From a virus (Duplodnaviria; Heunggongvirae; Uroviricota; Caudoviricetes): DNA of 64,000 bases. The position numbers and the translations under genes are program-made. Under the pieces are notes generated by a model. The model was not told where the DNA came from and ran no database searches. It was given only the letters and a program-made list of their open reading frames with translations. Below, one piece after another: positions 3,391 through 56,422 of the stretch. The number at the start of each line of letters is the position of its first letter. Position 1 is the first letter of the stretch. The stretch lies in the IMG/VR virus record IMGVR_UViG_3300043399_000676; one strand, written 5' to 3'.

Positions 3391-3467
3391 GCTTCTGTAG
3401 CTCAATTGGTCAGAGCAGAGGTCTCATAAACCTTTGGTTGGGGGTTCAAGTCCCTTCGGAAGCACCA
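3391..3467 (+). tRNA. tRNA-Met or tRNA-Ile2 (anticodon CAT)
   Basis: Acceptor GCTTCTG/CGGAAGC, D-arm GCTC…GAGC, anticodon loop CTCATAA, T-loop TTCAAGT, CCA encoded. Confidence 0.85.
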
Positions 3468-15743: not shown

Positions 15744-16019
15744 ATGAGCAAAGCAAAGTTCGTTGAAGTCACTTTTCGCTGCTATAACGATGCAGGTGGT
15801 TTCGGTCCGAAACAGCATCATTATGAAGCCACTGTCTTCGTTACAGACCGTACGCAAATTCGTCTGCGGTTGCGCGAGGGCTTTGCAAAGGACATGAAAC
15901 CCGTCGAGACTGCGGGAGCAGGTGTCACTGTGACGGTGGATGGTGTGTGTTATACGCCCATCGAGAACTACAACACGGTGTACGCAAAAGTTACTGAAGC
16001 ACTCAATCAGGTTCTCTAA
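15744..16019 (+). CDS. hypothetical protein
   Basis: ATG after leader copy C. Confidence 0.5.
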   Translation: MSKAKFVEVTFRCYNDAGGFGPKQHHYEATVFVTDRTQIRLRLREGFAKDMKPVETAGAGVTVTVDGVCYTPIENYNTVYAKVTEALNQVL

Positions 16020-16046: not shown

Positions 16047-16670
16047 ATGCGTATGAAGTACCCTCGTACCCCGCATCTTCCTTTTAGTAAAGGGAGGACG
16101 AGCGATGACAAAGTTCTGCCCTCCCTGTCTCACTTTGAGGGTCGTGAAATCGTTGTGACTATCAAGATGGATGGTGAGAACACCAGCATCTATCGTGATG
16201 GATTTCATGCTCGCAGCTTGGATAGTCGTCATCATCCTAGTCGAGACTGGCTTGCTCGCTTTCAGGCTACGATTGGACACGATATCCCCGAAGGATATCG
16301 TATCTGCGGTGAAAATGTGTATGCTCGTCATTCGGTTGCATACGACAATTTGCCTAGCTACTTTATGGGGTTTAGTGTCTGGGACGGCGAACGTGCCCTT
16401 AGCTGGGATGACACCCTTGAGTTCTTTGAACTTTTGGGGATCACTCCCGTCAAGGAACTGTATCGCGGTGTGTTCGATCAAAAAGTTCTGGAGCAACTGG
16501 CAAAAGACTTTGACACGGAAGCTAACGAAGGATTTGTGGTTCGTGTCGTTGATTCGTTTCAATACAAAGAATTTGGTAAGTCAGTAGCAAAGTGGGTTCG
16601 TTCTAATCATGTTCAGACTGATGAACATTGGATGCACTCTGCTATTGTCCCCAACGCACTTAAGGATTAA
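16047..16670 (+). CDS. Rnl2-like polynucleotide ligase/adenylyltransferase (nucleotidyltransferase domain only)
   Basis: KYPRTPHL…EIVVTIKMDGENTSI matches the T4 Rnl2 N-terminal and motif I (KxDG); 207 aa, no C-terminal domain. Confidence 0.5.
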   Translation: MRMKYPRTPHLPFSKGRTSDDKVLPSLSHFEGREIVVTIKMDGENTSIYRDGFHARSLDSRHHPSRDWLARFQATIGHDIPEGYRICGENVYARHSVAYDNLPSYFMGFSVWDGERALSWDDTLEFFELLGITPVKELYRGVFDQKVLEQLAKDFDTEANEGFVVRVVDSFQYKEFGKSVAKWVRSNHVQTDEHWMHSAIVPNALKD

Positions 16671-16673: not shown

Positions 16674-17078
16674 ATGGCTAGGAAAACTGCTGCTGAACGT
16701 CAAGCCGAACAACAGGCTAAGCGTCTGGAAATGGAAGCGTTCGAATGGTCTGAACTTGTTAAGACGTATGCCGAGAGGTTCGCTCGACTCATGTTTGAGT
16801 ACAGCAACAAACCTCGGGCCGTGTTCAAAGTGACTCGCACTGAAGATCCCAACGTGTATCTGTTTGAGTCTTGGCAAGATTGGAGTGATGAGTTTGTTCT
16901 TCCCGCTCGTCTTCCTGCTGAGTACAATGAACAACTCATCATGGATCTGAACAGTGCCGAACGGGCGCTCAGTCGGGCCGAAGAAGTTGAGGCTGAAGAA
17001 AATCGTCGTAGGCAACTTAAAGCCTCGGCACTTGCTAAACTCACTGAAGAAGAACGTCAAGTCTTGGAGATTAAGTAA
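16674..17078 (+). CDS. hypothetical coiled-coil protein
   Basis: Charged, helical; RBS upstream. Confidence 0.4.
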   Translation: MARKTAAERQAEQQAKRLEMEAFEWSELVKTYAERFARLMFEYSNKPRAVFKVTRTEDPNVYLFESWQDWSDEFVLPARLPAEYNEQLIMDLNSAERALSRAEEVEAEENRRRQLKASALAKLTEEERQVLEIK

Positions 17079-17429: not shown

Positions 17430-17609
17430 ATAGATGCATGAAGAAAGCTAAGTACCTATATGAAAGTGCAGCAGGCCATTATTGGGTTGAATGCATAATT
17501 TTGGGGTACTCAAATGAATACATTCATTTGAAGTTTCAAGACCCGTTCATCCCTTCCGTAGTTCACGAACGACTAGCACCTAAACACAAAGTAACATTTG
17601 AGGATTGAG

Positions 17610-17996
17610 ATGATTCCTGAAGATTGCCGTGCTGAGATTGTACATACTGGTATTTCCTTTATGCGTTCGATTACCGAAGCATATGGAGCTGAAGAGGGTC
17701 AAAAGCTTTGGGATACTATAGCTAACACTCTTGATCCTGATATCAAAGGACAAATCTTTTTCGCAATGTTGACTGGCAACTTTAGTCACAAGGTTGTTCT
17801 TTTGGGCTATACTGAAGGCGGCAAAATTCCTGCTATCAAAGCTATTCGTACAGTGACTGGACTTGGTCTCAAAGAAGCAAAGGATATTGCCGATCAACTT
17901 GATTATGGCATTAAGCCAGTGTCAATTACGTTGAGTGATCCTACTAAACGTAATGTCGCAGTTAGTATTTTGCGAGAGGCGGGTGTCAGGCTATAA
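17610..17996 (+). CDS. hypothetical protein
   Basis: RBS GAGGATTGAG then ATG at 17610. Confidence 0.4.
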   Translation: MIPEDCRAEIVHTGISFMRSITEAYGAEEGQKLWDTIANTLDPDIKGQIFFAMLTGNFSHKVVLLGYTEGGKIPAIKAIRTVTGLGLKEAKDIADQLDYGIKPVSITLSDPTKRNVAVSILREAGVRL

Positions 17997-23515: not shown

Positions 23516-24103
23516 ATGTGTATGAGATATTGGAAAAAAGTTTACGCAGGTGACTATCTAAGTTATTCAAAGAAGATTCTTGATTATGGAAAGGAAAACA
23601 TTAACTTCGAAAAATGTCCTTTTTGGAATCAACTGAATCTTTCTCGTCTAAAAGAATCTGTTCCGGAGCTATTTGAAGGCGTTGCAGAGTTCGGAGAACC
23701 TAAAGTTATTGCACTTCTATACATTAGAATGTATGATGCTAGTACAGTTCACATTGATCATACTGTTGGCTTGAACTTCGGAGTTCAAGCAAGGCTTAAC
23801 ATACCAATTTTGAATACAGAAGGAACAAGAACAGCTTTTTATGAATTGCCGATGCCACAAGTTCTTAACTTTAAATCAAATAGCGATGGTACAAAGTTTT
23901 GGCCACAAAGTTATAAGACTAGATTCTCTCCTATCACGGAAGTTGAAGTGGATTCTCCAACTATATTGAGAACTTCGGCAGTACATTCAGTTAAATGTCC
24001 TCCAAACGCAGCTATGCCTAGAATTACACTTACTATTGCGTTTCAGGAAGACTTGGTAAAGTATTTGGATATCGAAGATAATGACGAAGAAAAAAAAGTT
24101 TAA
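23516..24103 (+). CDS. hypothetical protein
   Basis: 195-aa ORF upstream of the sugar kinase gene, overlapping it by 23 nt. Confidence 0.4.
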   Translation: MCMRYWKKVYAGDYLSYSKKILDYGKENINFEKCPFWNQLNLSRLKESVPELFEGVAEFGEPKVIALLYIRMYDASTVHIDHTVGLNFGVQARLNIPILNTEGTRTAFYELPMPQVLNFKSNSDGTKFWPQSYKTRFSPITEVEVDSPTILRTSAVHSVKCPPNAAMPRITLTIAFQEDLVKYLDIEDNDEEKKV

Positions 24104-24839
24104 TGTATTGGTAGTAGGAGATAGTTGTATAGATGGATATTGCTATGGGACTTGCGAAAGATTAAGCCCTGAAGCACCAGTTCCTATTCTGAAACTTGCA
24201 AGAATGGAACAACGAGAAGGAATGGCTGCTAATGTAAAGAACAACCTTGAAGCATTAGGAGTACTAGTTACATTTAAGACAAATAAAGAAATAATTTCTA
24301 AAGTAAGGTTCATAGATGAAAAGTACGGCCAGCATTTGATTAGAGTGGATGAAGATACGTTAGTTGAACAATGGGATGGTGCAGACAAACTAAATTTAAC
24401 GAGATTTGATGCGATTGTGATCTCAGATTACAATAAGGGGTTTATCAGTTATAACACAATCTCCTCATTAAGACGCCGATTCGAAGGTCCTATTTTCCTT
24501 GATACTAAAAAACAAGATTTGGCACAATTCCATGGTATTTTTGTAAAGATCAATGAGCTAGAATACAAGAATAGATATAGCATCAATGACAATTTGATTG
24601 TCACTCTTGGAAAATCAGGAGCAATGTATAAAAAATTTAACGATGAAAAGTTCTATGAAACGCCAAAAGTTGATGTAGTTGATGTATGCGGTGCCGGTGA
24701 TACCTTTTTATCCGCACTAGCATTCAAGTATCTTGAGACTGGTTCTATTGATGATGCAATCAACTTTGCTAATAAGGCAGCATCAATTACAATTCAACAT
24801 ATGGGTACATATGCACCTACCTTAGGCGAGATAGAGTAG
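24081..24839 (+). CDS. PfkB-family sugar kinase, HldE/RfaE domain-I-like (heptose-7-phosphate kinase type)
   Basis: VLVVGDSCIDGYCYG…SPEAPVP (RfaE/HldE hallmark) and GAGDTF (PfkB signature). Confidence 0.6.
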   Translation: MTKKKKFNVLVVGDSCIDGYCYGTCERLSPEAPVPILKLARMEQREGMAANVKNNLEALGVLVTFKTNKEIISKVRFIDEKYGQHLIRVDEDTLVEQWDGADKLNLTRFDAIVISDYNKGFISYNTISSLRRRFEGPIFLDTKKQDLAQFHGIFVKINELEYKNRYSINDNLIVTLGKSGAMYKKFNDEKFYETPKVDVVDVCGAGDTFLSALAFKYLETGSIDDAINFANKAASITIQHMGTYAPTLGEIE

Positions 24840-35161: not shown

Positions 35162-35773
35162 ATGCGGCTCACTATGCTAGGTTCGCTGCCTGAAAACCCG
35201 ATGATTGCATTGAGTGGCGGCGTGGATAGCATGGTAGTCGCGGACTTTATTTCTCGCACTAGGGAAGTTACTTGTCTGTTCTTTCACCACAAAACTGAGA
35301 CAAGTGAAAAGGCTCATTCCTTTCTAGTGGATTATTGTAAGAGTCGAGATTGGTACTTAATCGTTAAATACTTGTCTGAGGAGAAACCCAAACATGAAAG
35401 CTACGAAGAGTTCTGGCGTAATCAACGCTATTCCTGGTTTGATTCCTTTAGTAGAACTGTCGTTACCGGTCATCATCTGGATGATTGCGTAGAGACTTAT
35501 CTTTGGAGTACTATGCACGGTACCCCAAAGACGATCCCTTATCAACGAAACAATGTGGTTCGCCCTTTTCTACTGACGCCAAAGCAGGCAATGTATGACT
35601 GGGCAAAAAGACATAGTATTCCTTGGATCGAAGATGAAACGAACAAGGACACTTCCTACATGCGAAATTTTGTTAGGCATGAACTACTACCCAAAGCATT
35701 GCATGTAAACCCCGGACTTCAAAAAGTGGTTGCAAGAAAAGTAAAAGCCTGCTATAATGCTGCTCTTAATTAA
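35162..35773 (+). CDS. PP-loop ATP pyrophosphatase family protein (TilS/QueC-like N-type ATPase)
   Basis: SGGVDS PP-loop motif (ALSGGVDSMVV); 203 aa. Confidence 0.5.
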   Translation: MRLTMLGSLPENPMIALSGGVDSMVVADFISRTREVTCLFFHHKTETSEKAHSFLVDYCKSRDWYLIVKYLSEEKPKHESYEEFWRNQRYSWFDSFSRTVVTGHHLDDCVETYLWSTMHGTPKTIPYQRNNVVRPFLLTPKQAMYDWAKRHSIPWIEDETNKDTSYMRNFVRHELLPKALHVNPGLQKVVARKVKACYNAALN

Positions 35774-35789
35774 ATAATCAGGAAACAAA

Positions 35790-36821
35790 ATGCGTCAGCT
35801 TGCTACTATCCGAAAAATTGATTCTATCCTTCCCATCGAGGGCGCCGATGCAATTGAGTGCGCGGTGGTCGGTGGCTGGAAAGTTGTGATCAAAAAAGGT
35901 GAATTTCAACCTAACGACCTCGCAGTGTACGTCGAGATCGATTCATGGGTTCCTCACGAACTTGCTCCTTTTCTGTCGAAAGGTAAAGAGCCTCGGGAGT
36001 TCAATGGCGTCAAGGGTGAACGTCTTCGTACTGCAAAGCTCCGCGGGCAAATCTCGCAAGGTCTTTTGCTTCCTCTTTCTGTCTTCCCTCATTCCCTTGG
36101 ATTTGAGTACGCAACAGAAAAAACAATCGGCGAAGATGTTACTGAATGGTTGAAGATTCAAAAATGGGAAGCTCCTATCCCTGCTCAACTCGCGGGTGAT
36201 GTCGAAGGTCTGTTCCCTTCGTTCATTCCTAAGACCGATCAGGAGCGAATTCAGAACCTCGGGGCTGAGTACGATGCTTGGAAGCAAGAAGGTGATGAGT
36301 GGGAAGTCACCGAAAAACTTGATGGTTCTTCGATGACTGTGTTTCTCAAGGACGATCACTTTGGTGTCTGTTCTCGTAACTGGGAACTCCGTGAATCGGA
36401 AGGTAACTCTCTTTGGCGTGTTGCTCGTCAGTACGATATTGAAGGGATTTTGCGTTCCAAAGGACACTTCGCCCTGCAAGGTGAATTGATCGGTGAAGGT
36501 ATTCAAGGCAACCCCTACAAGATCAAAGGACAGGACTTCTTTGTCTTTGATATCTACGACATTGATCAAGGGCGTTATCTGTCTCCCTCGGAGCGTAAAG
36601 CGTTCCTTGAAGGCACTGCACTGAAGCACGTTCCGATTCTGAATGAAGCTGAATCGTTCAAGGATCATGTTGGTACTATCCATCATGTTCTTGGTTGGGC
36701 TGAAGGGAAAAGCGTTCTGAACGGCCAGACTGAACGTGAAGGATTGGTGTTCAAACGTCGAGACGGTGCTGTTTCGTTTAAGGCAATTTCCAACAAGTTT
36801 TTGCTTAAAACGGGCGGTTGA
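35790..36821 (+). CDS. RNA ligase with N-terminal accessory domain (NgrRnl/Rnl5-like nucleotidyltransferase)
   Basis: Motif I EKLDGSS at about residue 180, preceded by a ~170-aa N-domain; 343 aa. Confidence 0.55.
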   Translation: MRQLATIRKIDSILPIEGADAIECAVVGGWKVVIKKGEFQPNDLAVYVEIDSWVPHELAPFLSKGKEPREFNGVKGERLRTAKLRGQISQGLLLPLSVFPHSLGFEYATEKTIGEDVTEWLKIQKWEAPIPAQLAGDVEGLFPSFIPKTDQERIQNLGAEYDAWKQEGDEWEVTEKLDGSSMTVFLKDDHFGVCSRNWELRESEGNSLWRVARQYDIEGILRSKGHFALQGELIGEGIQGNPYKIKGQDFFVFDIYDIDQGRYLSPSERKAFLEGTALKHVPILNEAESFKDHVGTIHHVLGWAEGKSVLNGQTEREGLVFKRRDGAVSFKAISNKFLLKTGG

Positions 36822-36846
36822 CTTTTATTCCTTGCTCTGCTATAAT
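36818..36846 (+). promoter_or_regulatory. sigma70 promoter (TTGACT-17-TATAAT)
   Basis: Overlaps the ligase stop. Confidence 0.5.
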
Positions 36847-36876
36847 GTTGTTAATGAGTAGAGCAAGGAGTAAATC

Positions 36877-37026
36877 ATGATCAGCGGTAGGACTAAAAAA
36901 GAAATCACTTATTCGTACTACCTCGAACTTTGCAGGAAATACTCTGAAAAGACTATTACCGATGACGAAGGATTCGATCTTGAACTCTGTCTTGCTGAGT
37001 TCGAAACCGACAGTTGGTTTAGGTAA
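36877..37026 (+). CDS. 49-aa hypothetical protein
   Basis: RBS AAGGAGTAAATC then ATG, identical to the RBS of the next gene. Confidence 0.35.
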   Translation: MISGRTKKEITYSYYLELCRKYSEKTITDDEGFDLELCLAEFETDSWFR

Positions 37027-37036
37027 GGAGTAAATC

Positions 37037-37378
37037 ATGCCTTGCAGGGACTATGAAAGTGATACTTGGGGTTACGGTTCGGGGATTTCAATGAAAGCAT
37101 ACGAAGAGCTTAAACAACAGGCAGATAAGTTGGCGAGGATCGCGTGTAAAGCAATGTCCGCACTTGAACAGGGAACCACACTTAACCAACTCTTGGAAGA
37201 TCCAGAGGTTTCAAAATGGTGGCCTGCTCACAAGAAGGCGGATGCTGCTAGGCAAAAAAAAGAAGCCGCCGAAAAAATCAAAAAAGAACAGGAAGCACTT
37301 CTTAAAAAAGAAGTGTTGGCAAAGCTGACGGAAGAAGAGCTTCAGGCATTTGGTTTGATTAAAAAGAGAAAATCATGA
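37037..37378 (+). CDS. hypothetical coiled-coil protein
   Basis: RBS AAGGAGTAAATC then ATG. Confidence 0.45.
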   Translation: MPCRDYESDTWGYGSGISMKAYEELKQQADKLARIACKAMSALEQGTTLNQLLEDPEVSKWWPAHKKADAARQKKEAAEKIKKEQEALLKKEVLAKLTEEELQAFGLIKKRKS

Positions 37379-37713
37379 CTGATGAAAGAGAAGAAGGTTA
37401 TTCGCAAGATGATGTTTATCAATACTTGTTGACTCATCGAATTGAAAGTCCGTGGGGAATCGATACTGATAAGATTGCAACCAATCTAATGATCGAATTG
37501 CTCAAGGCGAACGGCGGTGTGGTCATGGCTCTATTTCTCAAAGATGACAAGCTTCGGGAATGGTGGAATCGAAGAGTAGAATTTGCAAAGCAAAAACTTT
37601 CAGAAAAAGCAGAAAAGATGCGGCTTTACAATGTCAAGCTAGCAGCATATAATAAACTCACTCCTGCTGAAAGAAAGCTAGTTGGCATTCGTAAACCCAG
37701 AAAACCGAGTTGA
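37375..37713 (+). CDS. hypothetical protein
   Basis: ATGA overlap. Confidence 0.45.
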   Translation: MTDEREEGYSQDDVYQYLLTHRIESPWGIDTDKIATNLMIELLKANGGVVMALFLKDDKLREWWNRRVEFAKQKLSEKAEKMRLYNVKLAAYNKLTPAERKLVGIRKPRKPS

Positions 37714-37731
37714 TATAATAAATAAAGTATC

Positions 37732-37926
37732 ATGAAAATTTCTGACATTTCCAAAACTAGCCAAAAACGTCTTACGGAAGACCTAAGTAAGGATGAATCT
37801 GGATTCCTTACTGAGGATCTAGTAAAAATTGTCCAAGCTCACCAAGCAGACAATTGGTCTGAGCCGATCGATGGAGAGGACTATCTCCAGCTTCTGAAAC
37901 AAGGCAAATTGACGTGGCAGCGGTAA
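37732..37926 (+). CDS. small acidic hypothetical protein
   Basis: 64 aa; overlaps the next ORF. Confidence 0.35.
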   Translation: MKISDISKTSQKRLTEDLSKDESGFLTEDLVKIVQAHQADNWSEPIDGEDYLQLLKQGKLTWQR

Positions 37927-38285
37927 GAGTCTTAGAATGTGATCTCTTTAGAGAAACTGCTGCGATTCATTTGAAACCGGGATCTTCGACTGAAGAAAGT
38001 TTCCAAAATTTTATTGCAACTAAGATTCAAAATCCAATCGCAAGTTACGGTAAATCGGATAAGGCGAACCCAGCAGGAACGCCAATGGCACAATATGTTC
38101 CTAAAATTCGTCATGCCCACTTAACGCACGATATCAGCATATTTTATACCATAAGTGGGTCTAACCCATCTGAGCTTAGACTATACGGTGTTTTGACTCA
38201 CGATGAAGCAGGCACAGGCCAACCAGTTAATAATAAGCGTCAAAAAAGTGTAGCAAAGAGGTTTTCTAACCAAGATTTCAACTAA
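37914..38285 (+). CDS. hypothetical protein (weak RelE/ParE-like pattern)
   Basis: …HLTHDISIFYTISGSNPSELRLYGVLTHDE; tentative only. Confidence 0.35.
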   Translation: MAAVRVLECDLFRETAAIHLKPGSSTEESFQNFIATKIQNPIASYGKSDKANPAGTPMAQYVPKIRHAHLTHDISIFYTISGSNPSELRLYGVLTHDEAGTGQPVNNKRQKSVAKRFSNQDFN

Positions 38286-38289
38286 ACGG

Positions 38290-38318
38290 TTGACAAAAAA
38301 CCCAAACTGTCGTATAAT
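38290..38318 (+). promoter_or_regulatory. sigma70 promoter (TTGACA-17-TATAAT)
   Basis: Upstream of the pnk mini-operon. Confidence 0.55.
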
Positions 38319-38347
38319 TTACTTAAGTTAGATAGAAGGGGTAACAA

Positions 38348-38482
38348 ATGTCTGTCAAGCACAATCAACTGAAACCCTCCCCGCAATGGTGGAAGCATCT
38401 GCGTGAATGGAAGCGTGTCTTTTGGAAAAAAGAACGTAAAGCGTGGCAAAAAGAAATCAAAAATCGTAAGGATGTCGAATGA
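38348..38482 (+). CDS. 44-aa basic peptide
   Basis: RBS AAGGGG; ATGA-coupled to pnk. Confidence 0.3.
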   Translation: MSVKHNQLKPSPQWWKHLREWKRVFWKKERKAWQKEIKNRKDVE

Positions 38483-38880
38483 AGCTGATTCTGATTCGCG
38501 GTCTCCCTGGCTCTGGTAAATCGACGCTCGCCAAAACGCTGATGACCGACAATACGGTCCACGTTGAAGCGGACATGTACTTCATCGATGATGCTAGCGG
38601 CAAGTATGTTTTCCATCCCGAACTGATTCGTCAGGCACACGGCTGGTGTCAGAATACGACTGGTGCTGCACTTGCGGAAGGCAAGGATGTGATCGTGTCG
38701 AATACGTTCACGACCATCAAGGAGCTTCGCCCGTACTTCGACATGGCGAAAAATTTCGGCATCGTGCCTACTGTGATTCTCGCACAAAACCAGTTTCAGA
38801 ACGAACACAATGTCCCCGAAGAAACCCTGAAGCGTATGCGTGATCGGTTTCAGTATGATCTCACTCAACTTTTTGCTTAA
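38479..38880 (+). CDS. polynucleotide 5'-kinase (T4 Pnk kinase-domain-like, no HAD phosphatase domain)
   Basis: P-loop GLPGSGKST at the N-terminus; length and layout match the T4 PseT kinase domain; no DxDGT phosphatase motif. Confidence 0.6.
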   Translation: MKLILIRGLPGSGKSTLAKTLMTDNTVHVEADMYFIDDASGKYVFHPELIRQAHGWCQNTTGAALAEGKDVIVSNTFTTIKELRPYFDMAKNFGIVPTVILAQNQFQNEHNVPEETLKRMRDRFQYDLTQLFA

Positions 38881-38889
38881 GGAGCAAAC

Positions 38890-39093
38890 ATGAAATATCT
38901 TGGTTACTTTCTCGTTATCGCGGGCCTCGCAATTGGTCTTGGATTGCTTTTCGCTCTTCCTGTCATGTTGCTGTGGAATTACTGTCTGGTTGATGCAGTC
39001 GATGGAGTAAAAGAAATTACGTGGCTACAAGCGTGGGGATTGAATGTTCTCACTCATCTTCTGTTCACCAAGGCTAGTGTGAAGTCTGACTGA
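38890..39093 (+). CDS. small membrane protein
   Basis: Two hydrophobic helices. Confidence 0.4.
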   Translation: MKYLGYFLVIAGLAIGLGLLFALPVMLLWNYCLVDAVDGVKEITWLQAWGLNVLTHLLFTKASVKSD

Positions 39094-39115
39094 TATTAGA
39101 AAGTAGTCGAGTTAA

Positions 39116-39158
39116 ATGGAGTTTATGGTTGACATAAACTCCATTTCCATGTATAATG
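39116..39158 (+). promoter_or_regulatory. hairpin-embedded sigma70 promoter
   Basis: ATGGAGTTTATG…CATAAACTCCAT 12-bp inverted repeat flanking the -35 TTGACA; TATAAT at 39153. Confidence 0.45.
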
Positions 39159-39184
39159 TTTGTATTCTGAATAAGGAAATGCAA

Positions 39185-40075
39185 ATGGATAAGGACTCTC
39201 TGCGTCAATTCGTGCAAGACAACCCGAAGCTGGTTACGATGCGTGAAACCTCTACGCCTGGTCTTTTTGTGATCAAATATTCCAAGCGTGTTTTCTTCGA
39301 CAATCTTTGGAATGAATTCCTCGAAGAGTGTCGCGGCTTGATCGTTGACGCGGACTGGAACCCTGTTGTGCGTCCTTTCAAGAAGGTGTACAATTTCGGC
39401 GAGAACGGTGCTTCTTATGATCGTGATCGTATGGTGTATGTCGAGCGTAAAGTAAATGGCTTTATGGGTGCTGCGACCTATGTCTCGTCTGTTGATCAAG
39501 TTATCTACTCCACGACTGGTTCGCTGGATTCTGACTTCGCGGTGATCGTTCGTAAGTGGCTGTCTCCGTACGAACAGTTTTTCCGCTATCATCCGAATCG
39601 TACCTTTTTGTTTGAGGTGTGTGACAAGTCTGATCCGCATATCATCCCTGAAGTCGAAGGGGTGTATCTGATTGGTGCTCGTAATGCTGGAAAGTGGGAC
39701 AATGAAGTTCGTTGTGCGAACACTGATATGCTGGATTGGTATGCGAAATATATGGGCGGCGGAATTCTTCGTCCTTCGCACTCTGTTCAACGGTTTGGTG
39801 ATGTGGTTCAGCAAGTCAAGACTTGCTACCATGAAGGGTTCATTGTGTATCCGGTAGATTCTTGGGAGACTGATGCGGGACTGAAGATCAAGTCCAAGTA
39901 CTATCTGATTCAAAAGGCGTTGGCTCGTAAAAAGGATATCATGACCCTGAACAAGCAACTGCTGGATGAAGAATTCTATCCGCTCGTTGATCATCTCAAC
40001 GGAATGAAGGACGAGTTTAATGCTATGGACGAGCAGTCGCGTCTGGATTACATGCGTAAGTTTTTGCAAGCATGA
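39185..40075 (+). CDS. RNA ligase, Rnl1/Trl1-type (KxNG motif I)
   Basis: Motif I ERKVNGFMG (KxNG as in Trl1-type ligases); 296 aa; immediately downstream of pnk. Confidence 0.5.
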   Translation: MDKDSLRQFVQDNPKLVTMRETSTPGLFVIKYSKRVFFDNLWNEFLEECRGLIVDADWNPVVRPFKKVYNFGENGASYDRDRMVYVERKVNGFMGAATYVSSVDQVIYSTTGSLDSDFAVIVRKWLSPYEQFFRYHPNRTFLFEVCDKSDPHIIPEVEGVYLIGARNAGKWDNEVRCANTDMLDWYAKYMGGGILRPSHSVQRFGDVVQQVKTCYHEGFIVYPVDSWETDAGLKIKSKYYLIQKALARKKDIMTLNKQLLDEEFYPLVDHLNGMKDEFNAMDEQSRLDYMRKFLQA

Positions 40076-46618: not shown

Positions 46619-46668
46619 TTGACAAAAAATCCCTTTCGTACTATAATAACAAAATAGTTGAAAGGGAT
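46619..46668 (+). promoter_or_regulatory. sigma70 promoter (TTGACA-18-TATAAT) within an AATCCCTTTC…GAAAGGGATT inverted repeat
   Basis: 10-bp inverted repeat with the -10 element in its loop, then a T run. Confidence 0.45.
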
Positions 46669-46673: not shown

Positions 46674-47240
46674 ATGAAAAACATTTGGTTCACCTCTGAC
46701 ACGCATTTCTATCATCGGAACATTCTGAAGTTCTGCCCGAATACGCGGGAAGGTGCGGATTCTGAGGAAATGACTGAACTGATGATCCAGCGCTGGAACG
46801 AAAAGGTCAAGCCTCACGACCGCATTTACCATCTTGGTGATTTTTCGTTCGCCAACCATCAGCGTACCCTCCAGCTTCTGCTTCGTCTGAACGGGCAGAT
46901 TCACCTGATTCAGGGTAACCATGATCATGTGATTGACAATAACGACATTCGCAGCCAGTTTGTCGATATCAAAGCGTACAAGGAGATCAAGGTCGGTACA
47001 GAAAAAATCTGCATGTTTCATTTTCCGATGTACGAATGGAACAGGATGCATCATGGTGCGTGGCAGCTTCACGGACACACTCATGGTGAGGTTCAGATCG
47101 AAGGCAAATCGCTCGACGTTGGCATTGACGGACCTGTGACGAAGGGTATGTCTCCGGTTCACTTCGATGAAGTGGCTGAATGGATGAGCAAGCGAGAAAT
47201 TCGCACTCATCATGGAAAACATGGAGAAAATATACTTTGA
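46674..47240 (+). CDS. calcineurin-like metallophosphoesterase
   Basis: MPP motifs DTHFYH, GDFSF, GNHDH and a later H/HGH. Confidence 0.6.
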   Translation: MKNIWFTSDTHFYHRNILKFCPNTREGADSEEMTELMIQRWNEKVKPHDRIYHLGDFSFANHQRTLQLLLRLNGQIHLIQGNHDHVIDNNDIRSQFVDIKAYKEIKVGTEKICMFHFPMYEWNRMHHGAWQLHGHTHGEVQIEGKSLDVGIDGPVTKGMSPVHFDEVAEWMSKREIRTHHGKHGENIL

Positions 47241-49474: not shown

Positions 49475-51622
49475 ATGATTCTGAATAACGCTCCCCAAGA
49501 TCAAGCAGTTCTTTCCAACGTCGGCCAAATCGGCGAGTTTCGTATTCGCAACTCCGCGAAGGCATTTAGTATTCTGTCTTCGGGGCTGTACGCAAACAAG
49601 ATCCGCGCGATCATCCGTGAACTTTCCTGCAATGCGGTTGACTCGCACGTTGCAGCAGGCAAATCGGAAACCCCTTTCGATATTCATCTTCCGAATGCTC
49701 TTGAGCCTTGGTTCAGTATTCGTGACTACGGTACTGGGCTCGATCACGCTCAAGTAACCAACATCTATACGACCTACTTCGAATCTACCAAAACGGAATC
49801 GAACGATTTTATCGGTGCGCTGGGTCTGGGTTCGAAGTCCCCGTTTTCGTATACTGACAATTTCACCGTGACTGCGATCAAGGATGGTCGCAAAGGTATC
49901 TACACCGCATTCATCAATGAACATGGTGTTCCGAGCATTGCCCTGATGTTCGAGGAAGAAACGACCGATCCGGCTGGTGTCGAGGTGAAGTTTTCGGTCA
50001 ACGATAAGCATGACTACGAAAAGTTCAACCAAGAAGCGAGGAACGTTTATGAATATTTCAAGCTGCGTCCGGTAGTCAGCGGTCGTTCGGATTTCAAGTT
50101 CAGTGATCCTCACTTTGAAGATCGTGACATCGTTCCTGGTGTTCATACGCTGAAGGTTAATCGTGCTTATGATAGCATTAGTTTTGCTATCATGGGTAAC
50201 ATTGCGTATCCCGTGAATGTTCCGGAAGCTGACAAGACGCTAGGTACTCTTCGCCCGCTGCTTAAGTGTGGTCTGGTGATGGAGTTTGGTATCGGTGAAC
50301 TGGATTTTCAGGCTTCGCGTGAAGGTCTCTCGTATGTTCCTCTGACGATTGAATCGATTCAGAAAAAGCTGGTCGTTCTGAATGATCAACTGGTTAAGTA
50401 CGTTGCGAAAGAAGCTGAAAAGATCGAGAATCTGTGGGAACGTGCAGTCTGGCTTGCTAAGAAGCGTGACTATACGCTTTGGCGTAACGCGGTCGATAAG
50501 TATGTTACGGATACGAAGTTTCCTCTTGCATCGGGTAGCACGAATCGTTGGGAATTCCTGAACTCGTTTAAGTTCACTGTCGAAGAACTTCGTGAAAAGT
50601 ACAACATCGTTATTCGAGGCTTTCAGAAGCAATCCGGATATCAGCATATGTCTACGCTGAAACCACGTAGTGTGCATAACTCCGTTTACGGTACTTTTAA
50701 GGAAACTTGGGAATTTACGATTGACCTGAACAAATCATTTGTCTTCAACGACACTAATGTCGGAGCACTTGAACGAGCCAAGCATCACTGGAAATCTGCG
50801 GATGACGTACACCATGCATCCGTCTATGTCATCGATGCATTTGTCAAAGGTAATCCTATCAAGAAGCAGGAATTCCTCGATGCACTGATGAACCCTCCTT
50901 CTAATATGTTTTTTAAAGCTAGCGAACTTGCTAAGAAGGACAGCAAGGCTCGTATTGGCAAAAATGTTTCGATTCTGAAGCTGGAAGAACGTCGTCGCAG
51001 TTCTTGGAATACTGAATGGGTCTGGGCTGCTGCTGGTAAGATTGACAGTTTTTCTGACAGTGAAACCTTTTACTACGTCGAAATGTCTGCGTGGGAGCCC
51101 CTCGATATTCCAGTCGATATCAAAACTCTCCGTCTCCGACTTTATGAATCGGATGTGTTTAAAGGTTCGATCTACGGAGTTCGTAAGTCTGATATCGAAG
51201 AAGTTCGTAGTCGTAAAAATTGGGTCAGCCTGAACGAGATGATCAAGTCCTCGCTTGGTAAGTTGGATACTTCTAATGTGATGGGAATGGTCAAACAATC
51301 GGTTGACATCAAGGCACTTTACAAGTATATTAACGTTATCAACAAAGTTGATCAAAATAGTCCGTATGTCAAACTGTACAATGTTTTTAAGGATGTTAAA
51401 GATGACAGCCCGGTGAAACGTCAAGCACTAGAGTTTCTCTGCAAGAAATATGGAATCACAACTGCTGCAAAAGTTGATCCGAATGCATTGATTGCTAAGT
51501 ACAATGGAGAAGTTGCAGCGATTTATATTCGATATCCCCTGCTTCGCAGCCTGAGCCACACGGTCGATTCTCAAGCTGTTGCTGAATACATTAACCTCAT
51601 CGATCAAAACAAAGGAATTTAA
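49475..51622 (+). CDS. rIIA: rIIA lysis-inhibition protector (GHKL ATPase N-domain)
   Basis: 715 aa; N-terminal blocks KAFSILSSGLYANKIRAIIRELSCNAVDSH and ESNDFIGALGLGSKSPFSYTDNF match T4 rIIA; Bergerat-fold ATPase motifs. Confidence 0.8.
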   Translation: MILNNAPQDQAVLSNVGQIGEFRIRNSAKAFSILSSGLYANKIRAIIRELSCNAVDSHVAAGKSETPFDIHLPNALEPWFSIRDYGTGLDHAQVTNIYTTYFESTKTESNDFIGALGLGSKSPFSYTDNFTVTAIKDGRKGIYTAFINEHGVPSIALMFEEETTDPAGVEVKFSVNDKHDYEKFNQEARNVYEYFKLRPVVSGRSDFKFSDPHFEDRDIVPGVHTLKVNRAYDSISFAIMGNIAYPVNVPEADKTLGTLRPLLKCGLVMEFGIGELDFQASREGLSYVPLTIESIQKKLVVLNDQLVKYVAKEAEKIENLWERAVWLAKKRDYTLWRNAVDKYVTDTKFPLASGSTNRWEFLNSFKFTVEELREKYNIVIRGFQKQSGYQHMSTLKPRSVHNSVYGTFKETWEFTIDLNKSFVFNDTNVGALERAKHHWKSADDVHHASVYVIDAFVKGNPIKKQEFLDALMNPPSNMFFKASELAKKDSKARIGKNVSILKLEERRRSSWNTEWVWAAAGKIDSFSDSETFYYVEMSAWEPLDIPVDIKTLRLRLYESDVFKGSIYGVRKSDIEEVRSRKNWVSLNEMIKSSLGKLDTSNVMGMVKQSVDIKALYKYINVINKVDQNSPYVKLYNVFKDVKDDSPVKRQALEFLCKKYGITTAAKVDPNALIAKYNGEVAAIYIRYPLLRSLSHTVDSQAVAEYINLIDQNKGI

Positions 51623-51680
51623 AATGAGCTACCCCTATCTGATTCAAGGAAAGGTATAAATACTAGTACGAGGTACTAGT

Positions 51681-52415
51681 ATGAATTATCAAAAAATATA
51701 CGACACGCTTATAGCAAGAGCTATCGGTAGGAAAAAAATGAATAAACATGATCCTGGTTATGTTTATTATGAACGACATCATATTGTTCCTAAATGCTTA
51801 GGCGGCACCGATTCTACTTTAAATTTGGTTTATCTGACAGCAGAAGAACATTGGATTGCTCATTTATTACTAGTAAAGTTGAATCCCGAAAACAATAAAT
51901 TAGTGTATGCTTGCCAAGCAATGTCGATGTCTGGTGGGAACAATAAGAGAACTACAAATAAGTTATTTGGATGGATCAGGAGAAAGTACAGTAATGCCAC
52001 TAGTGAGCGGCAAAAGGGCCGCGTTGTAACGCAGGAACAAAGACTTAAAATAAGCTCATCACTAATAGGTAGGCCGGCTCTTCATCAACAAGGCAATAAT
52101 AACATATCAAAAAGACCTGAGGTTGCCAAAAAAATAAGCGAGTCAAATAAGGGCAGGAAGCAGAATTTCTCGAACCCTGAATTGCGATTAAAAAGAATAA
52201 GTGAGGCTAAGAAAGGAAAACCTCACTTATCAGGAGAATCAAACCCTGCATTTAAAGGATGGATTATAGGTACTCCAGTAGAAGGTGGACCTGAGATAAG
52301 AATATCATCCAAAAAAGACATGGATTTTTATGGGTTTACCAAAACATCAGTATATAAGTGCGTAAACGGCATTAACCATCAACACAAGGGTTACAAATTT
52401 AGAAGAGAAGAATAG
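51681..52415 (+). CDS. HNH homing endonuclease with NUMOD3 repeats, inserted between rIIA and rIIB
   Basis: YYERHHIVPKCLGGTDSTLNLVYLTAEEHWIAH HNH motif; C-terminal S/K-rich NUMOD3-like repeats. Confidence 0.75.
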   Translation: MNYQKIYDTLIARAIGRKKMNKHDPGYVYYERHHIVPKCLGGTDSTLNLVYLTAEEHWIAHLLLVKLNPENNKLVYACQAMSMSGGNNKRTTNKLFGWIRRKYSNATSERQKGRVVTQEQRLKISSSLIGRPALHQQGNNNISKRPEVAKKISESNKGRKQNFSNPELRLKRISEAKKGKPHLSGESNPAFKGWIIGTPVEGGPEIRISSKKDMDFYGFTKTSVYKCVNGINHQHKGYKFRREE

Positions 52416-52487
52416 CCCAAAAAGCATTGATATTTGCGACATTTTCAGTTAAAATCAACTTTCGTTAATTACACTAAAAGGAACATC

Positions 52488-53462
52488 ATGAATTCGACTC
52501 CGGCCTATCTTATTCAAGGTAACAACATTACCGTTGTCATCGACAACAAACCCTACACGATCTCCAAGACTCATATCACCTACAATAAGGTTCTTGAGGC
52601 AATCAAAGCAGGTGACTGGGAAGCAGTCAAAGATGCGATTGAACCTAAGAAAATTTTCTACAAGTTTTCTAATGGTGTGGTCAAAATCGAAGACGGCCAG
52701 TTCTTCTGGAAAGGTCAACTCATGCATAATGCGCTGACCACTCGTATGATTGAAATGCTGAAGGAAGATTTTCCGATTGACCCGCTCATCAATTTTATGA
52801 GCAACCTGATGTCGAATCCCAGCAAGCGTTCAGTCGATGAACTGTATGGCTTTCTGGAGAAGAACAACCTTCCGATTACTCCCGATGGACACTTCCTTGC
52901 TTACAAGCGTGTTCGTAATGACTACAAAGATTGTCACTCGGGTACGATGGATAACAGCATCGGTAGTATTGTCGAGATGGAACGCAATCAAGTCGATGAT
53001 GACAAAGATCGCACTTGCAGCACTGGTCTGCACTTCTGCTCGCATGAGTATCTGAAGAGTTTTGGTGGCGAACGCACGGTGATTCTGAAGATCAATCCTC
53101 GTGATGTTGTCAGCATTCCGTCTGACTATAACGATAGCAAAGGTCGCTGCTGCCGTTATGAAGTTATCGGTGAGGTTGATCACACTCCGGATGAGTCTGT
53201 TGAATTCAACAAGCCTGTGCAGTCGAACGCTAACTCGGTAAAATCTGAAAGACCCAAAAAGGGAGACTCTGAATTTTATCGTGGGTATTCAGAAGGATAT
53301 GACGACCTAGACTTTGACGAAACTGTGTGGGATGATGAGGATGCGGATGAGTATGAAGATGGATTCAACCAAGGGTGTGATGATAGGCTTGCAGGAAATC
53401 CTGCACGATACGAATTCGATGACTTTTCTGATGGATTTGAGTTTCCTACCCGCATGCCTTAA
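52488..53462 (+). CDS. rIIB: rIIB protein
   Basis: Blocks DGHFLAYKRVRNDYKDCHSGTMDNS…CSTGLHFCS…INPRDVVSIPSDYNDSKGRCCRYEV match T4 rIIB; acidic C-terminus. Confidence 0.8.
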   Translation: MNSTPAYLIQGNNITVVIDNKPYTISKTHITYNKVLEAIKAGDWEAVKDAIEPKKIFYKFSNGVVKIEDGQFFWKGQLMHNALTTRMIEMLKEDFPIDPLINFMSNLMSNPSKRSVDELYGFLEKNNLPITPDGHFLAYKRVRNDYKDCHSGTMDNSIGSIVEMERNQVDDDKDRTCSTGLHFCSHEYLKSFGGERTVILKINPRDVVSIPSDYNDSKGRCCRYEVIGEVDHTPDESVEFNKPVQSNANSVKSERPKKGDSEFYRGYSEGYDDLDFDETVWDDEDADEYEDGFNQGCDDRLAGNPARYEFDDFSDGFEFPTRMP

Positions 53463-53949: not shown

Positions 53950-55047
53950 ATGGCTCAAGTTAGCGATCATATCACTGTCACTTCGATTCAAGCCAAGAAG
54001 GCTCTCAACAAAGCTATCCGCGTTCAGCGCCCGGTCGTTCTCTGGGGTCCCCCGGGAATTGGCAAGTCGGATGTCGTTCAGCAAATTGCTGATGACCTCG
54101 GCGGTGTCCTGATCGACGTTCGTCTCTCGCAGTGCGAGCCGACTGACATTCGTGGTATTCCGTTCTACAATAAGGACCTCGGCAAGATGGACTGGGCTCC
54201 CCCGGTCGAGCTTCCCGACGAGGAGTTCGCTTCGCAGTATCCGGCTGTGATTCTGTTCCTCGATGAAATCAACGGTGCTGCGCCCGCTGTTCAGGCTGCT
54301 GCTTACCAGCTGATTCTCAATCGTCGTATCGGCAAGTACGTTCTTCCGAAGAACGTGTCTATCGTCGCTGCGGGTAACCGCGACTCTGACAAAGGCGTGA
54401 CGTATCGCATGCCGATGCCCCTCGCTAATCGTTTCATTCACTTGGAAATGCGTCCTGACTTCACTAGCTGGCAACAGTGGGCCGTCAACAAAGGCATTCA
54501 CAAGGACGTGGTTGGTTATCTGTCGTTCGCCAAGCAGGATCTGTACGATTTCGATGCCCGCTCGTCGTCGCGTTCGTTCGCTACTCCGCGTTCGTGGTCG
54601 TTCGTTTCGGATCTGCTGAAAGACGAGGATATCGATACTGATACCCTGTTCAATCTGGTCGCTGGTACTGTCGGCGAAGGTCTCGCTACGAAATTCGCTG
54701 CTCACCGCAAGGTGGCTGGCAAGATGCCCGAACCGAGTGATATTCTCTCGGGTAAGGTCAAGGACCTCGCAGTCAAGGAAGTGTCCGCAATGTACTCGCT
54801 GACGATCTCCATGTGCTACGAACTGCGTGATGCTATCGAGAATAAAAAGGTCAAAAGCAAAGAGTTCCACGAAATGGCTGATAACTTCTTCAGCTTCATG
54901 ATGGATAACTTCGAAACGGAGCTCGTGGTTATGGGCGCTCGTATCGCTCTCAAGACCCACGAACTTCCGATCGAGCCCTCGCAGTTGAAAAACTTCGATG
55001 CCTTCTACAAAAAGTTCGGCAAGTACATCATCGCTAGCAACGAATAA
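53950..55047 (+). CDS. MoxR/CobS-like AAA+ ATPase
   Basis: Walker A WGPPGIGKSD, Walker B ILFLDEIN; about 365 aa, as in phage CobS-like proteins. Confidence 0.7.
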   Translation: MAQVSDHITVTSIQAKKALNKAIRVQRPVVLWGPPGIGKSDVVQQIADDLGGVLIDVRLSQCEPTDIRGIPFYNKDLGKMDWAPPVELPDEEFASQYPAVILFLDEINGAAPAVQAAAYQLILNRRIGKYVLPKNVSIVAAGNRDSDKGVTYRMPMPLANRFIHLEMRPDFTSWQQWAVNKGIHKDVVGYLSFAKQDLYDFDARSSSRSFATPRSWSFVSDLLKDEDIDTDTLFNLVAGTVGEGLATKFAAHRKVAGKMPEPSDILSGKVKDLAVKEVSAMYSLTISMCYELRDAIENKKVKSKEFHEMADNFFSFMMDNFETELVVMGARIALKTHELPIEPSQLKNFDAFYKKFGKYIIASNE

Positions 55048-55056
55048 TTGCTAGAT

Positions 55057-55089
55057 AAAAAGGGGAGTTTTCTCCCCTTTTTATTTTTG
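55057..55089 (+). terminator. rho-independent terminator
   Basis: AAAAGGGGAG-tttt-CTCCCCTTTT followed by a T run. Confidence 0.7.
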
Positions 55090-55118
55090 TTGACAAAAAA
55101 TCCAAGGTTTGCTATAAT
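55090..55118 (+). promoter_or_regulatory. sigma70 promoter (TTGACA-17-TATAAT)
   Basis: Immediately after the terminator. Confidence 0.55.
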
Positions 55119-55144
55119 TATAAAATCAACTTAAGGAGTTTTAC

Positions 55145-56422
55145 ATGGCGAACACCGCAGTCAAGAACAAAGATCGTAACACCAGTCTCGACAACCTCGT
55201 TGGTTCGACCGACGCTAAAATCGACGCTCAAGCCCGTGAGCGTATCGTTACTTCCCGAATTGGTCTGCTGCTGAAACATTCCTTTTTCGGCAATCTGGCT
55301 ACTCGTCTGCAACTCGTTAACGCGGATGAGTGGCTCCCCACTGCTGCGGTCGACGGTATTCGCTTCTATTACAACAGTCGGTTTGTGATGAAACTCAAGC
55401 CCAAGGAAGTCGATTTCCTGGTTGCTCATGAGATTCTTCACCTGGTCTACGATCACCTTGATCGTCGTCAGAATCGTGATCCGCAGATGTACAACATCGC
55501 CTGCGACTACGCGGTCAATGCTGACCTGAAACGTCAACGTATTGGTCAATTCATTACGACTGTTCCGTGTCTGTACGAGCCCAAATACGACGGTAAGGCT
55601 TCTGAGGAAATTTACGATGACCTCATGAAGAATGTTCAGAAACTCGACCTCGATCAACTGCTTGACCAAATGATCGATCAACACCTCGACGGTGATGATG
55701 GTGATGGTGACGGCGATGAAACTGACGGCGAAGGCAAACCGAAAAAAGGTCCTGCTAAGATGTCGGATGCTGAACGTGAGCAGGCCCGTCAGGAAATGAA
55801 GCAGGCAATCATCTCGGCTGCTCAGTCTGCCGAGGCTGGTTCGCTTCCGCGGGGCGTCGAGCGTATGATCAAGGATCTGACTAGCCCGGTCATGCCCTGG
55901 CGTGATCTTATTCAGGTCAATCTGACTTCTGCTATTCGCAACGACTATAGCTGGATGCGTCCTTCTCGTCGTGGCTGGCACATGGATGCGGTGATGCCTG
56001 GTATGACTCCCGGCGAGGAAATCGATGTTGCTGTGGCAATCGATATGTCCGGTTCTATCTCTGACAAACAGGCTAAGGCATTCCTTAGCGAGGTCGTCGG
56101 AATGATTGAATCGTTCGATGGTTTCAAACTGCATATCTTCTGCTTTGACACTAACGTGTACAATGCTCAGGATTTCAGTAGCGATAACCTCGATTCTGTC
56201 GAAACTTACGAACCGAAAGGTGGCGGTGGTACTGATTTCACTGCGATTTATACGCACCTCAAGGACAACGATAACGTTCCGAAACGTCTGATTGTCTTTA
56301 CTGATGGTCTTCCGTATGGTTCGTGGGGCGATCCTGACTACTGCGACGTTACGTGGATCATCCATGGTAGCAAGGATATCACTCCCCCGTTTGGTCAGTG
56401 GGCCTATTTCGATGACAAATAA
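55145..56422 (+). CDS. VWA-domain protein (CobT-like partner of the AAA+ ATPase)
   Basis: MIDAS motif AIDMSGSISD; acidic DGDDGDGDGDETDGEG linker; 425 aa. Confidence 0.65.
   Translation: MANTAVKNKDRNTSLDNLVGSTDAKIDAQARERIVTSRIGLLLKHSFFGNLATRLQLVNADEWLPTAAVDGIRFYYNSRFVMKLKPKEVDFLVAHEILHLVYDHLDRRQNRDPQMYNIACDYAVNADLKRQRIGQFITTVPCLYEPKYDGKASEEIYDDLMKNVQKLDLDQLLDQMIDQHLDGDDGDGDGDETDGEGKPKKGPAKMSDAEREQARQEMKQAIISAAQSAEAGSLPRGVERMIKDLTSPVMPWRDLIQVNLTSAIRNDYSWMRPSRRGWHMDAVMPGMTPGEEIDVAVAIDMSGSISDKQAKAFLSEVVGMIESFDGFKLHIFCFDTNVYNAQDFSSDNLDSVETYEPKGGGGTDFTAIYTHLKDNDNVPKRLIVFTDGLPYGSWGDPDYCDVTWIIHGSKDITPPFGQWAYFDDK

Follow-up and report, generated by a model that had tools for sequence, protein, structure and literature searches.

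Candidate RNA-repair modules in a probable large T4-like phage: a separate kinase, aq_1665-type phosphoesterase and Rnl1-family ligase, with two further ligases and a TilS-like protein

Introduction

Bacteria protect themselves by cleaving tRNA, a defence that phages counter with additional tRNAs and enzymes for repair. To our knowledge, only the route of phage T4, which uses Pnkp and Rnl1, has been worked out biochemically. The present work concerns a stretch of 64,000 nucleotides (nt) from a virus of the Caudoviricetes (IMG/VR record IMGVR_UViG_3300043399_000676), called the window below, and the genes for RNA repair and tRNA modification that it appears to carry on its + strand. These encode a small P-loop kinase, an Rnl1-family ATP-dependent RNA ligase and an aq_1665-type metallophosphoesterase, together called the triad here, two further RNA ligases and a protein like the N-terminal part of TilS. 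It is likely that they form three separable RNA modules, namely a heal-and-seal triad, two extra ligases, and the TilS-like protein with a tRNA. An earlier annotation made from the letters alone, referred to as the sequence-only reading, had grouped most of these genes into one repair toolkit; every open reading frame (ORF) that it named was found at its place and with its motifs, the profile matches being too strong to arise by chance, and its particular claims are taken up where the results bear on them.

The nearest described system is that of T4, with Pnkp and Rnl1 and also Rnl2. The window resembles it in belonging to a T4-like lineage with rIIA and rIIB, in an Rnl1-family ligase (E 8e-11) and in phage tRNAs, and the heal-then-seal logic for breaks that carry a 2',3'-cyclic phosphate and a 5'-OH is presumed to be shared. 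However, the window kinase is without the HAD (DxDxT) domain of the T4 enzyme, and a separate metallophosphoesterase gene is present instead; the window ligase is ~80 amino acids (aa) shorter than T4 Rnl1, its C-terminal region being truncated; and in place of Rnl2 the window has an Rnl5 ligase and a stand-alone PF09414 ligase. The comparison with bacterial Pnkp (Clostridium thermocellum Pnkp/Hen1; Pnkp1-Rnl-Hen1) gives three genes rather than one polypeptide, a phosphoesterase that is aq_1665-like and not lambda-phosphatase-like, and a ligase of Rnl1 type. There is no Hen1 in the window; the methyltransferase at 61541-62233, considered as a Hen1-like candidate, was rejected, as it gave generic class-I methyltransferase matches only and no Hen1 match. 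The sequence-only reading had drawn a parallel between the phosphoesterase and bacterial Pnkp, which is apt as an analogy but not as a statement of clade.

Two other described systems concern the further ligases. In the Runella ligase/HD-Pnk cassette, compared here by its published description (Munir & Shuman, cited in PMC6097658), a ligase accompanies HD-Pnk, and the bacterial relatives of the 207-aa window ligase share this arrangement; by contrast, the 207-aa ligase stands alone, no HD-Pnk or HD protein being found in the 64 kb, and its phage relatives are often tipped with an HNH domain. With NgrRnl and DraRnl, the window Rnl5 shares a full-length alignment, the order of OB and nucleotidyltransferase domains, and motifs I, IV and V, and no difference from them was detected at the sequence level.

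It has been reported that jumbo phages encode several ATP-grasp RNA ligases, for instance three Rnl2-family paralogues in XacN1, that they carry polynucleotide kinases and many tRNAs, and that a minority have calcineurin-like or HD phosphatases; the same heal-and-seal logic was predicted for them (Iyer et al. 2021, Viruses 13:63, PMC7824862). Calcineurin-like phosphatases are rare in that survey, whereas here an aq_1665-type enzyme almost always accompanies the Rnl1 clade, and the family of this enzyme is present in 1,540 cultured phage records. The sequence-only reading had called the modular split unusual compared with T4; relative to T4 this stands, but among phages the split triad and sets of several ligases are both common, as those records and the survey of Iyer et al. 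show. The arrangement is thus known in kind: RNA-repair kits of this sort have already been catalogued in large phages, and the present one is rather ordinary. The window clearly exemplifies an alternative wiring, with Pnkp replaced by a separate kinase and an aq_1665-type phosphoesterase, and in a large clade of Rnl1-like ligases that wiring is the norm.

Linkage of the kinase, phosphoesterase and Rnl1-like ligase

Linkage was determined in 87 viral contigs that carry genes related to that of the Rnl1-like ligase. After dereplication at 80% ligase identity these contigs fell into 52 lineages; their six-frame ORFs were searched with the window proteins and with hidden Markov models (HMMs) built from the matches, and a gene within 10 kb of the Rnl1-like ligase was counted as linked. 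A phosphoesterase homologue is linked in 43 of the 52 lineages and a small P-loop kinase of either type in 40, the kinase being window-like in 24 and closer to the HD-Pnk kinase domain in 15; phosphoesterase and kinase occur together in 35 lineages, and neither is found in 4. Where at least 5 kb is available on each side of the ligase, the phosphoesterase is present in 47 of 49 loci, and the loci without it are mostly truncated. The median gap between phosphoesterase and ligase is 484 nt, the median gaps of the triad genes to the ligase are ~0.5 kb, and in many loci phosphoesterase and ligase lie on the same strand less than 100 nt apart or overlap. Every other window gene is linked in at most 14 of the 87 loci; an Rnl5 homologue is linked to the Rnl1-like ligase in 10 of the 52 lineages, and the 207-aa ligase and the TilS-like gene are linked to the triad in none of the 87 loci.

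Contiguous arrangements are also found. One contig (L014) has an operon of ligase (3164-4045), phosphoesterase (4085-4648) and kinase (4645-5037), and the triad genes of Vibrio phage VnaP are consecutive (010-012). Another (L055, 9974-11413) encodes a single 479-aa ORF in which the Rnl1-like ligase is followed by a C-terminal P-loop kinase, a Rosetta-stone fusion; fusions of the phosphoesterase to kinase or ligase were also sought in the viral loci and none was found, so that the ligase-kinase protein is the sole fusion. The Rnl1-like ligase occurs in 785 cultured phage records, and the cultured phages that bear the phosphoesterase include therapeutic phages of Pseudomonas, Staphylococcus, Listeria and E. 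coli. The sequence-only reading had suggested that the phosphoesterase supplies the missing 3'-end-healing step. This role, which is one of guilt by association, is well supported because of the conserved gene neighbourhood with the Rnl1-like ligase, in which the two genes often adjoin.

Several genes recur around the Rnl1-like ligase in other loci and are not in the window. A Cys-phosphatase-like protein with the motif HCxxGxxRS lies near it in 11 of the 52 lineages, a 470-aa protein that is TROVE/DUF2828-like by eye also in 11, and an HD phosphohydrolase, whose gene in many cases immediately precedes that of the kinase, in 13; example loci for these genes are L020 1817-2323, L086 6196-7608 and L056 1905-2405.

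Kinase

The kinase gene (38479..38880, + strand) encodes a stand-alone P-loop polynucleotide 5'-kinase-like protein of 133 aa, closed by a stop codon, with GLPGSGKST at residues 8-16. It matches Pfam AAA_33 end to end (E 1.2e-14) and shows no second domain, and its PHROG matches are PHROG 2071 and PHROG 505, the latter named polynucleotide kinase. The P-loop (G8-T16), E30, D32, the SNTFTT strand and R123 do not vary among 41 homologues. The protein thus has a P-loop, a catalytic Asp ~18 residues past the P-loop Lys, and an Arg-bearing lid (RMRDR at 119-123, with the invariant R123), the features by which a polynucleotide kinase was to be recognised. The AlphaFold model built from the alignment of the 41 homologues has a predicted local distance difference test (pLDDT) score of 90.8, and its fold is nearer to polynucleotide kinases than to nucleotide or sugar kinases; with the sequence profile, T4 Pnk and CthPnk are among the best PDB matches. 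A 3'-phosphatase domain of the T4 HAD (DxDxT) type is absent from the kinase and was found in none of the ~75 window ORFs scanned, and the earlier description of a kinase-only Pnk is therefore a fair label. From these features the protein is predicted to phosphorylate 5'-OH ends.

Two classes of small kinase accompany the ligase and phosphoesterase in the viral loci (e.g. L010, L050, L074). One is window-like, of ~130-180 aa; the other is ~155 aa long and gives E 1e-10 to 1e-14 against the kinase half of bacterial HD-Pnk.

Rnl1-family ligase

The ligase ORF formally spans 39116-40075 (319 aa), and the start at 39185, giving a protein of 296 aa (39185..40075, + strand), is the better call because homologues begin there, an AAGGAA ribosome-binding site precedes it, and the promoter at 39129-39157 lies inside the longer ORF; the 296-aa form had already been given in the sequence-only reading. 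A search against PF09511 (RNA_lig_T4_1), which had been proposed there as a check, gave a match above the gathering score that covers the whole profile (E 1.4e-9, 38.6 bits vs a cutoff of 28.3), and the match to phrog_562 has E 5.5e-45. In nine divergent homologues K89-V-N-G, E144, DPH150, E217-G-F and K234-x-K236 are invariant, and nucleotidyltransferase motifs I, III, IIIa, IV and V are all present. The family profile matches T4 Rnl1 (2C5U) at E 8e-11 over the nucleotidyltransferase domain only, and it matches no Trl1 chain in the PDB at E <= 1, though Trl1 LIG structures are present there. The label Trl1-like, which the sequence-only reading had attached to this ligase, had as its sole ground the Asn of motif I and is not retained; the profile fits T4 Rnl1.

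phrog_562, the best PHROG family of this ligase, is named "RNA ligase and tail fiber protein attachment catalyst", and the protein might be kept mainly for tail-fibre attachment, the second activity of T4 gp63, with ligation secondary. This is very improbable, as the catalytic residues of the nucleotidyltransferase are all invariant across divergent homologues, the gene is linked to end-healing enzymes and not to tail genes, and an early-type promoter stands before it; a role as an RNA ligase is preferred.

Metallophosphoesterase

The phosphoesterase (46674..47240, + strand, 188 aa) is a candidate end-healing enzyme for 2',3'-cyclic-phosphate and 3'-phosphate ends. Its five metallophosphoesterase motifs are intact (DTH, GD, GNHD, H116 and GHTH), and 41 homologues show little or no variation at D9-H11, G55-D56, G81-N82-H83, H116 and G134-H135-x-H137. 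The profile matches Aquifex aq_1665 (1XM7) over its full length at E 4e-24, with the diesterase GpdQ second at E 0.005, and phrog_547 is matched at E 4e-56; the Pfam Metallophos models did not reach E 0.01, and a weak precomputed PF12850 match is on record. With either the single sequence or the profile, no PDB match at E <= 1 was obtained to PP1, calcineurin or lambda-phosphatase chains or to Pnkp phosphatase chains. The sequence-only reading had held that membership of a Ser/Thr-phosphatase clade with protein substrates would speak against an end-healing role; this was tested with a negative outcome, no PPP chain being matched.

The genes might also be unrelated accessory genes that share an early region, the toolkit being the reader's construct and the target of the phosphoesterase being not RNA ends but, for example, DNA ends or cyclic-nucleotide defence signals. 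The surroundings of the phosphoesterase in the window agree with this, since the gene lies 6.6 kb from the ligase, beside genes for an SprT-like protein, a Nudix protein and a 2-oxoglutarate (2OG)-oxygenase, as does the identity of its nearest characterised structural relatives, which are diesterases such as GpdQ; nucleotide-signal targets have been predicted for some calcineurin-like phage enzymes (Iyer et al. 2021, PMC7824862), and the failure of the stand-alone ligase and the TilS-like gene to be linked to the triad in any locus points the same way. Yet the phosphoesterase and the Rnl1-like ligase are neighbours on the same strand in most lineages, contiguous three-gene operons exist, and comparable linkage is seen for no other gene. 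We consider a chance assembly of accessory genes unlikely, and an RNA-end-healing function of the phosphoesterase is preferred.

Proposed mechanism of RNA repair

In the proposed mechanism, a host ribonuclease would cut tRNA or another RNA and leave ends with a 2',3'-cyclic phosphate and a 5'-OH. The aq_1665-type metallophosphoesterase would open the cyclic phosphate and remove the cyclic or 3' phosphate; the 133-aa kinase, judging by its fold, motifs and linkage, would phosphorylate the 5'-OH; and the short ligase, as a member of the Rnl1 family, would seal the break via lysyl-AMP at K89. We infer all of these catalytic steps from the families to which the proteins belong, their folds, their intact active sites and the conserved linkage of their genes. 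The triad would then do the job of T4 Pnkp and Rnl1 with the phosphatase swapped, and it may be regarded as a counterpart of bacterial Pnkp in which kinase, phosphoesterase and ligase are split into separate proteins.

Several observations weigh against this mechanism or parts of it. The kinase has no Arg three residues past the catalytic Asp (D32-M33-Y34-F35), and none is conserved there across the family; in T4 Pnk, R38 at this position, three residues after the catalytic Asp, holds the acceptor. The profile alignment of the Rnl1-like ligase to 2C5U ends at T4 residue 252, and ~60 residues follow motif V in this ligase vs ~120 in T4, so that it appears to be without a tRNA-binding C-domain of T4-Rnl1 size; it is the C-terminal helical domain that confers tRNA specificity on T4 Rnl1. 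The distance of 6.6 kb between the window phosphoesterase and the ligase is at the far end of the range, a gap above 5 kb occurring in 1 of the 43 lineages. No published assays of an enzyme from this phosphoesterase clade, from the mini-kinase clade or from the short Rnl1 clade were found in the literature searched. As for the clade of the 207-aa ligase, it has been reported that the Runella ligase encoded beside HD-Pnk self-adenylylates and sealed no tested 3'-OH/5'-PO4 substrate (PMC6097658).

More tentatively, and with somewhat more doubt than belief, the triad might represent a distinct and very widespread phage RNA repair pathway, a trans-acting counterpart of Pnkp built on a different phosphoesterase clade, and might be one of three ligase systems of which each serves its own type of RNA break. 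If so, the three types would be loop breaks, duplex nicks and the HD-Pnk-clade ligase's own substrate, and by sharing out the work in this way the phage would be able to withstand several host defences that cleave tRNA or rRNA. Current ideas are not overturned by the window, which fills in a predicted category and is of value mainly as a defined target for biochemistry. Biochemical work on the triad could give a function to the aq_1665 fold known from structural genomics and could reveal whether phages of this kind withstand anticodon-nuclease defences.

Two further RNA ligases

The Rnl5 ligase (35790..36821, + strand, 343 aa) is of the DraRnl/NgrRnl type and is predicted to seal nicks; an OB domain at its N-terminus is followed by a nucleotidyltransferase domain. 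PF21189 (the PHA02142 OB domain) covers residues 4-96 and PF09414 residues 169-332, with KLDG at residue 176; the match to Naegleria NgrRnl (5COT) is full length at E 2.6e-101, and the TIGR02306 (DRB0094) equivalog is matched at 189.2 bits vs a cutoff of 151.15. The earlier assignment as NgrRnl/Rnl5-like is thus unambiguous, and by analogy with NgrRnl the enzyme should seal 3'-OH/5'-PO4 nicks in duplex RNA.

The third ligase (16047..16670, + strand, 207 aa) is a stand-alone nucleotidyltransferase domain and is assigned to the clade whose bacterial members accompany HD-Pnk. It matches PF09414 at E 1.4e-32, with KMDG at residue 40, and in a family of 5,777 homologues K40, E89, E161-G162 and K182 are invariant. 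Its AF2 model (pLDDT 90.5) is a bare nucleotidyltransferase domain. In Foldseek comparisons Rnl3 and Rnl5 rank above Rnl2, with Rnl3, Rnl5, Rnl2, Trl1 and Rnl1 all at template modelling (TM) scores of ~0.45-0.58; there is no Rnl2 C-terminal domain and no specific structural closeness to Rnl2. The earlier term Rnl2-like is acceptable in the broad sense of PF09414 and not in the narrow one, the model being equidistant from Rnl3, Rnl5 and Rnl2. Profile, structure and motif tests agree in that all three ligases of the window belong to RNA-ligase families as genuine covalent nucleotidyltransferases; the sequence-only reading had distinguished three ligases, and the doubt that it raised, that they might not be nucleotidyltransferases at all, was not borne out by these predictions.

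In bacterial loci with a ligase of the 207-aa type, an HD-Pnk-like protein with HD and AAA_33 domains is immediately downstream or fused in 70 of 80. An HD-Pnk HMM run against the 64-kb window detected no HD domain and gave a marginal match to the 133-aa kinase only. The jumbo-phage homologues of the ligase (CcrSC, ME3) have an N-terminal HNH domain, which is a separate gene in Burkholderia; this agrees with the HNH-fused Rnl2-family ligases remarked on by Iyer et al. 2021 (PMC7824862). The orphan ligase of the window opens a route, by way of a phage, to an enzyme for which the Shuman laboratory could find no substrate.

The gene string in one Burkholderia locus (L008, 6001-8243) is ligase-HNH-HD-Pnk, and in many actinomycetes, Streptomyces and others (L101-L175), the ligase of the 207-aa type is fused to a kinase-bearing protein in single ORFs of 550-900 aa. 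Two neighbouring ORFs of the window were considered as partners of the 207-aa ligase. A split Rnl5, in which the ORF at 15744-16019 would supply the OB domain, was rejected because the extension of the longer homologues is HNH and not an OB fold; this ORF has no Pfam or PHROG match. The ORF at 16674-17078, considered as the counterpart of the 141-aa gene that follows the Burkholderia ligase, showed no similarity to it.

TilS-like protein and tRNA(CAU)

The PP-loop protein upstream of the Rnl5 ligase (35162..35773, + strand, 203 aa) had been counted among the repair enzymes in the sequence-only reading; it is instead a TilS N-terminal domain protein and belongs to a separate tRNA-modification module. 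It has SGGVDS at residue 18 and matches PF01171 at E 1.9e-33 and TIGR02432 at 119.5 bits, above the cutoff of 93.6. The C-terminal tRNA-binding domains of TilS are missing, the full-length model NF007942 scoring 73 bits vs a cutoff of 606 and aligning over profile positions 21-221 of 439 only, and in this the protein differs from cellular TilS. It is 45% identical over ~180 aa to a TilS-annotated protein of the Pseudomonas jumbo phages PA5oct and MIJ3. The MIJ3/PA5oct protein was reported as the first phage TilS, and a "tRNA-Met" is listed for the same phages (PMC6892783); the window protein is like it in sequence, and for both the function is a predicted one.

The tRNA gene with a CAT anticodon at 3391..3467 (+ strand), labelled Met(cat) by ARAGORN, is probably tRNA-Ile2, as in E. 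coli, apart from the tRNA-Trp of one strain, it is matched best by a tRNA-Ile gene that has anticodon CAT and stands beside a P2-like prophage, and not by tRNA-Met. The TilS-like protein is probably a lysidine synthase paired with the phage's own tRNA-Ile2 for decoding AUA in an AT-rich phage. It would turn C34 of the tRNA(CAU) into lysidine, so that the tRNA reads AUA, an activity unrelated to repair.

Promoters and the RelE/YafQ-like cassette

Perfect sigma-70 consensus promoters (TTGACA-N17-TATAAT) on the + strand lie upstream of the kinase (38290..38318) and of the ligase start at 39185 (39129..39157), and a third perfect consensus promoter lies upstream of the phosphoesterase (46619..46647, + strand). 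The window has 14 perfect TTGACA-N16-18-TATAAT sites, all on the + strand, vs 0.06 expected; they are at 844, 3339, 5150, 5702, 9522, 11241, 15353, 15685, 34473, 38290, 39129, 46619, 53485 and 55090, and precede the tRNA cluster, NAMPT, the triad genes and other genes. The pattern resembles that of T4 early promoters and, since each triad gene follows its own perfect promoter, suggests that kinase, ligase and phosphoesterase are co-expressed early.

Between the Rnl5 ligase and the kinase there is a RelE/YafQ-like protein of 123 aa (37914-38285), which ends 193 nt before the kinase and overlaps by 13 nt its upstream partner, a 64-aa ORF (37732-37926). The 123-aa family comprises 270 clusters, and its profile aligns from end to end with HP0892, a YafQ/RelE-type toxin of H. 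pylori (E 0.002), and retains the His/Asp/His positions. In 26 viral loci with the RelE/YafQ-like gene, the 64-aa ORF is its partner in 18 and a kinase is nearby in 2. The two ORFs look like a phage-borne toxin-antitoxin-like RNase cassette, independent of the repair genes and showing no linkage to them.

T4 Pnk phosphorylates mRNAs cut by RegB, and the position of the HP0892-like gene just before the kinase, in a T4-like phage with rIIA and rIIB, might mean that the kinase serves mainly mRNA turnover together with the RelE/YafQ-like protein and not tRNA repair. However, the RelE/YafQ-like gene keeps company with the 64-aa ORF and only rarely with the kinase, and a RegB/Pnk-like pairing was rejected for this reason; the kinase tracks the ligase and phosphoesterase, and a perfect promoter separates it from the RelE/YafQ-like gene. 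A main role in mRNA turnover is quite improbable, and the kinase is better placed with the heal-and-seal triad.

The phage and other genes of the window

The window has 41% G+C, and nearly all of its coding sequence is on the + strand. ARAGORN detects seven tRNA genes, in keeping with the seven or more counted earlier. Since megablast against cultured phages found no near-identical DNA, the phage itself is uncultured; the nearest genes are 40-58% identical. A 338,587-bp contig has on record proteins 100% identical to the window kinase and phosphoesterase, for which reason the phage is probably a jumbo phage from an environmental metagenome, and the same gene order is found on a 20-kb Logan contig and also on ENA contigs. 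The gene content includes class I ribonucleotide reductase, thymidylate synthase and DHFR, and rIIA, a homing endonuclease and rIIB are encoded at 49475-53462, the homing endonuclease gene (51681-52415) sitting between the other two. With reasonable confidence, the window may be taken to come from a large T4-like phage and to hold its early or auxiliary genes. Among the ~75 ORFs scanned, no other repair enzymes of the HD, HAD, 2H, RtcB, Tpt1, RlaP or CCA-adding types were found.

An NAD+ salvage set is encoded at 7530-8558, 11325-12719 and 24081-24839; its members are a bifunctional NMN adenylyltransferase/Nudix protein, which scores 402.6 bits against NF003786 vs a 397-bit cutoff, NAMPT and, as a putative member, a truncated PfkB-family kinase. 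NAMPT lies near the Rnl1-like ligase in 10 of the 52 lineages. At 37037-37713, neighbouring genes of 113 aa and 112 aa are weak tandem paralogues with Lys-rich tails (29% identity, E 2e-5), and homologues of the pair also adjoin in one of the viral loci (L075). A 132-aa protein encoded at 17598-17996 has the C-terminal domain of ribosomal protein L7/L12 (Pfam E 1.4e-9, above the gathering score), and its homologues were seen in several related viral loci. At 53950-56422, a MoxR-type AAA ATPase gene is followed by that of a DUF2201 metallopeptidase/VWA protein, a pair that recurs in loci with the RelE/YafQ-like gene.

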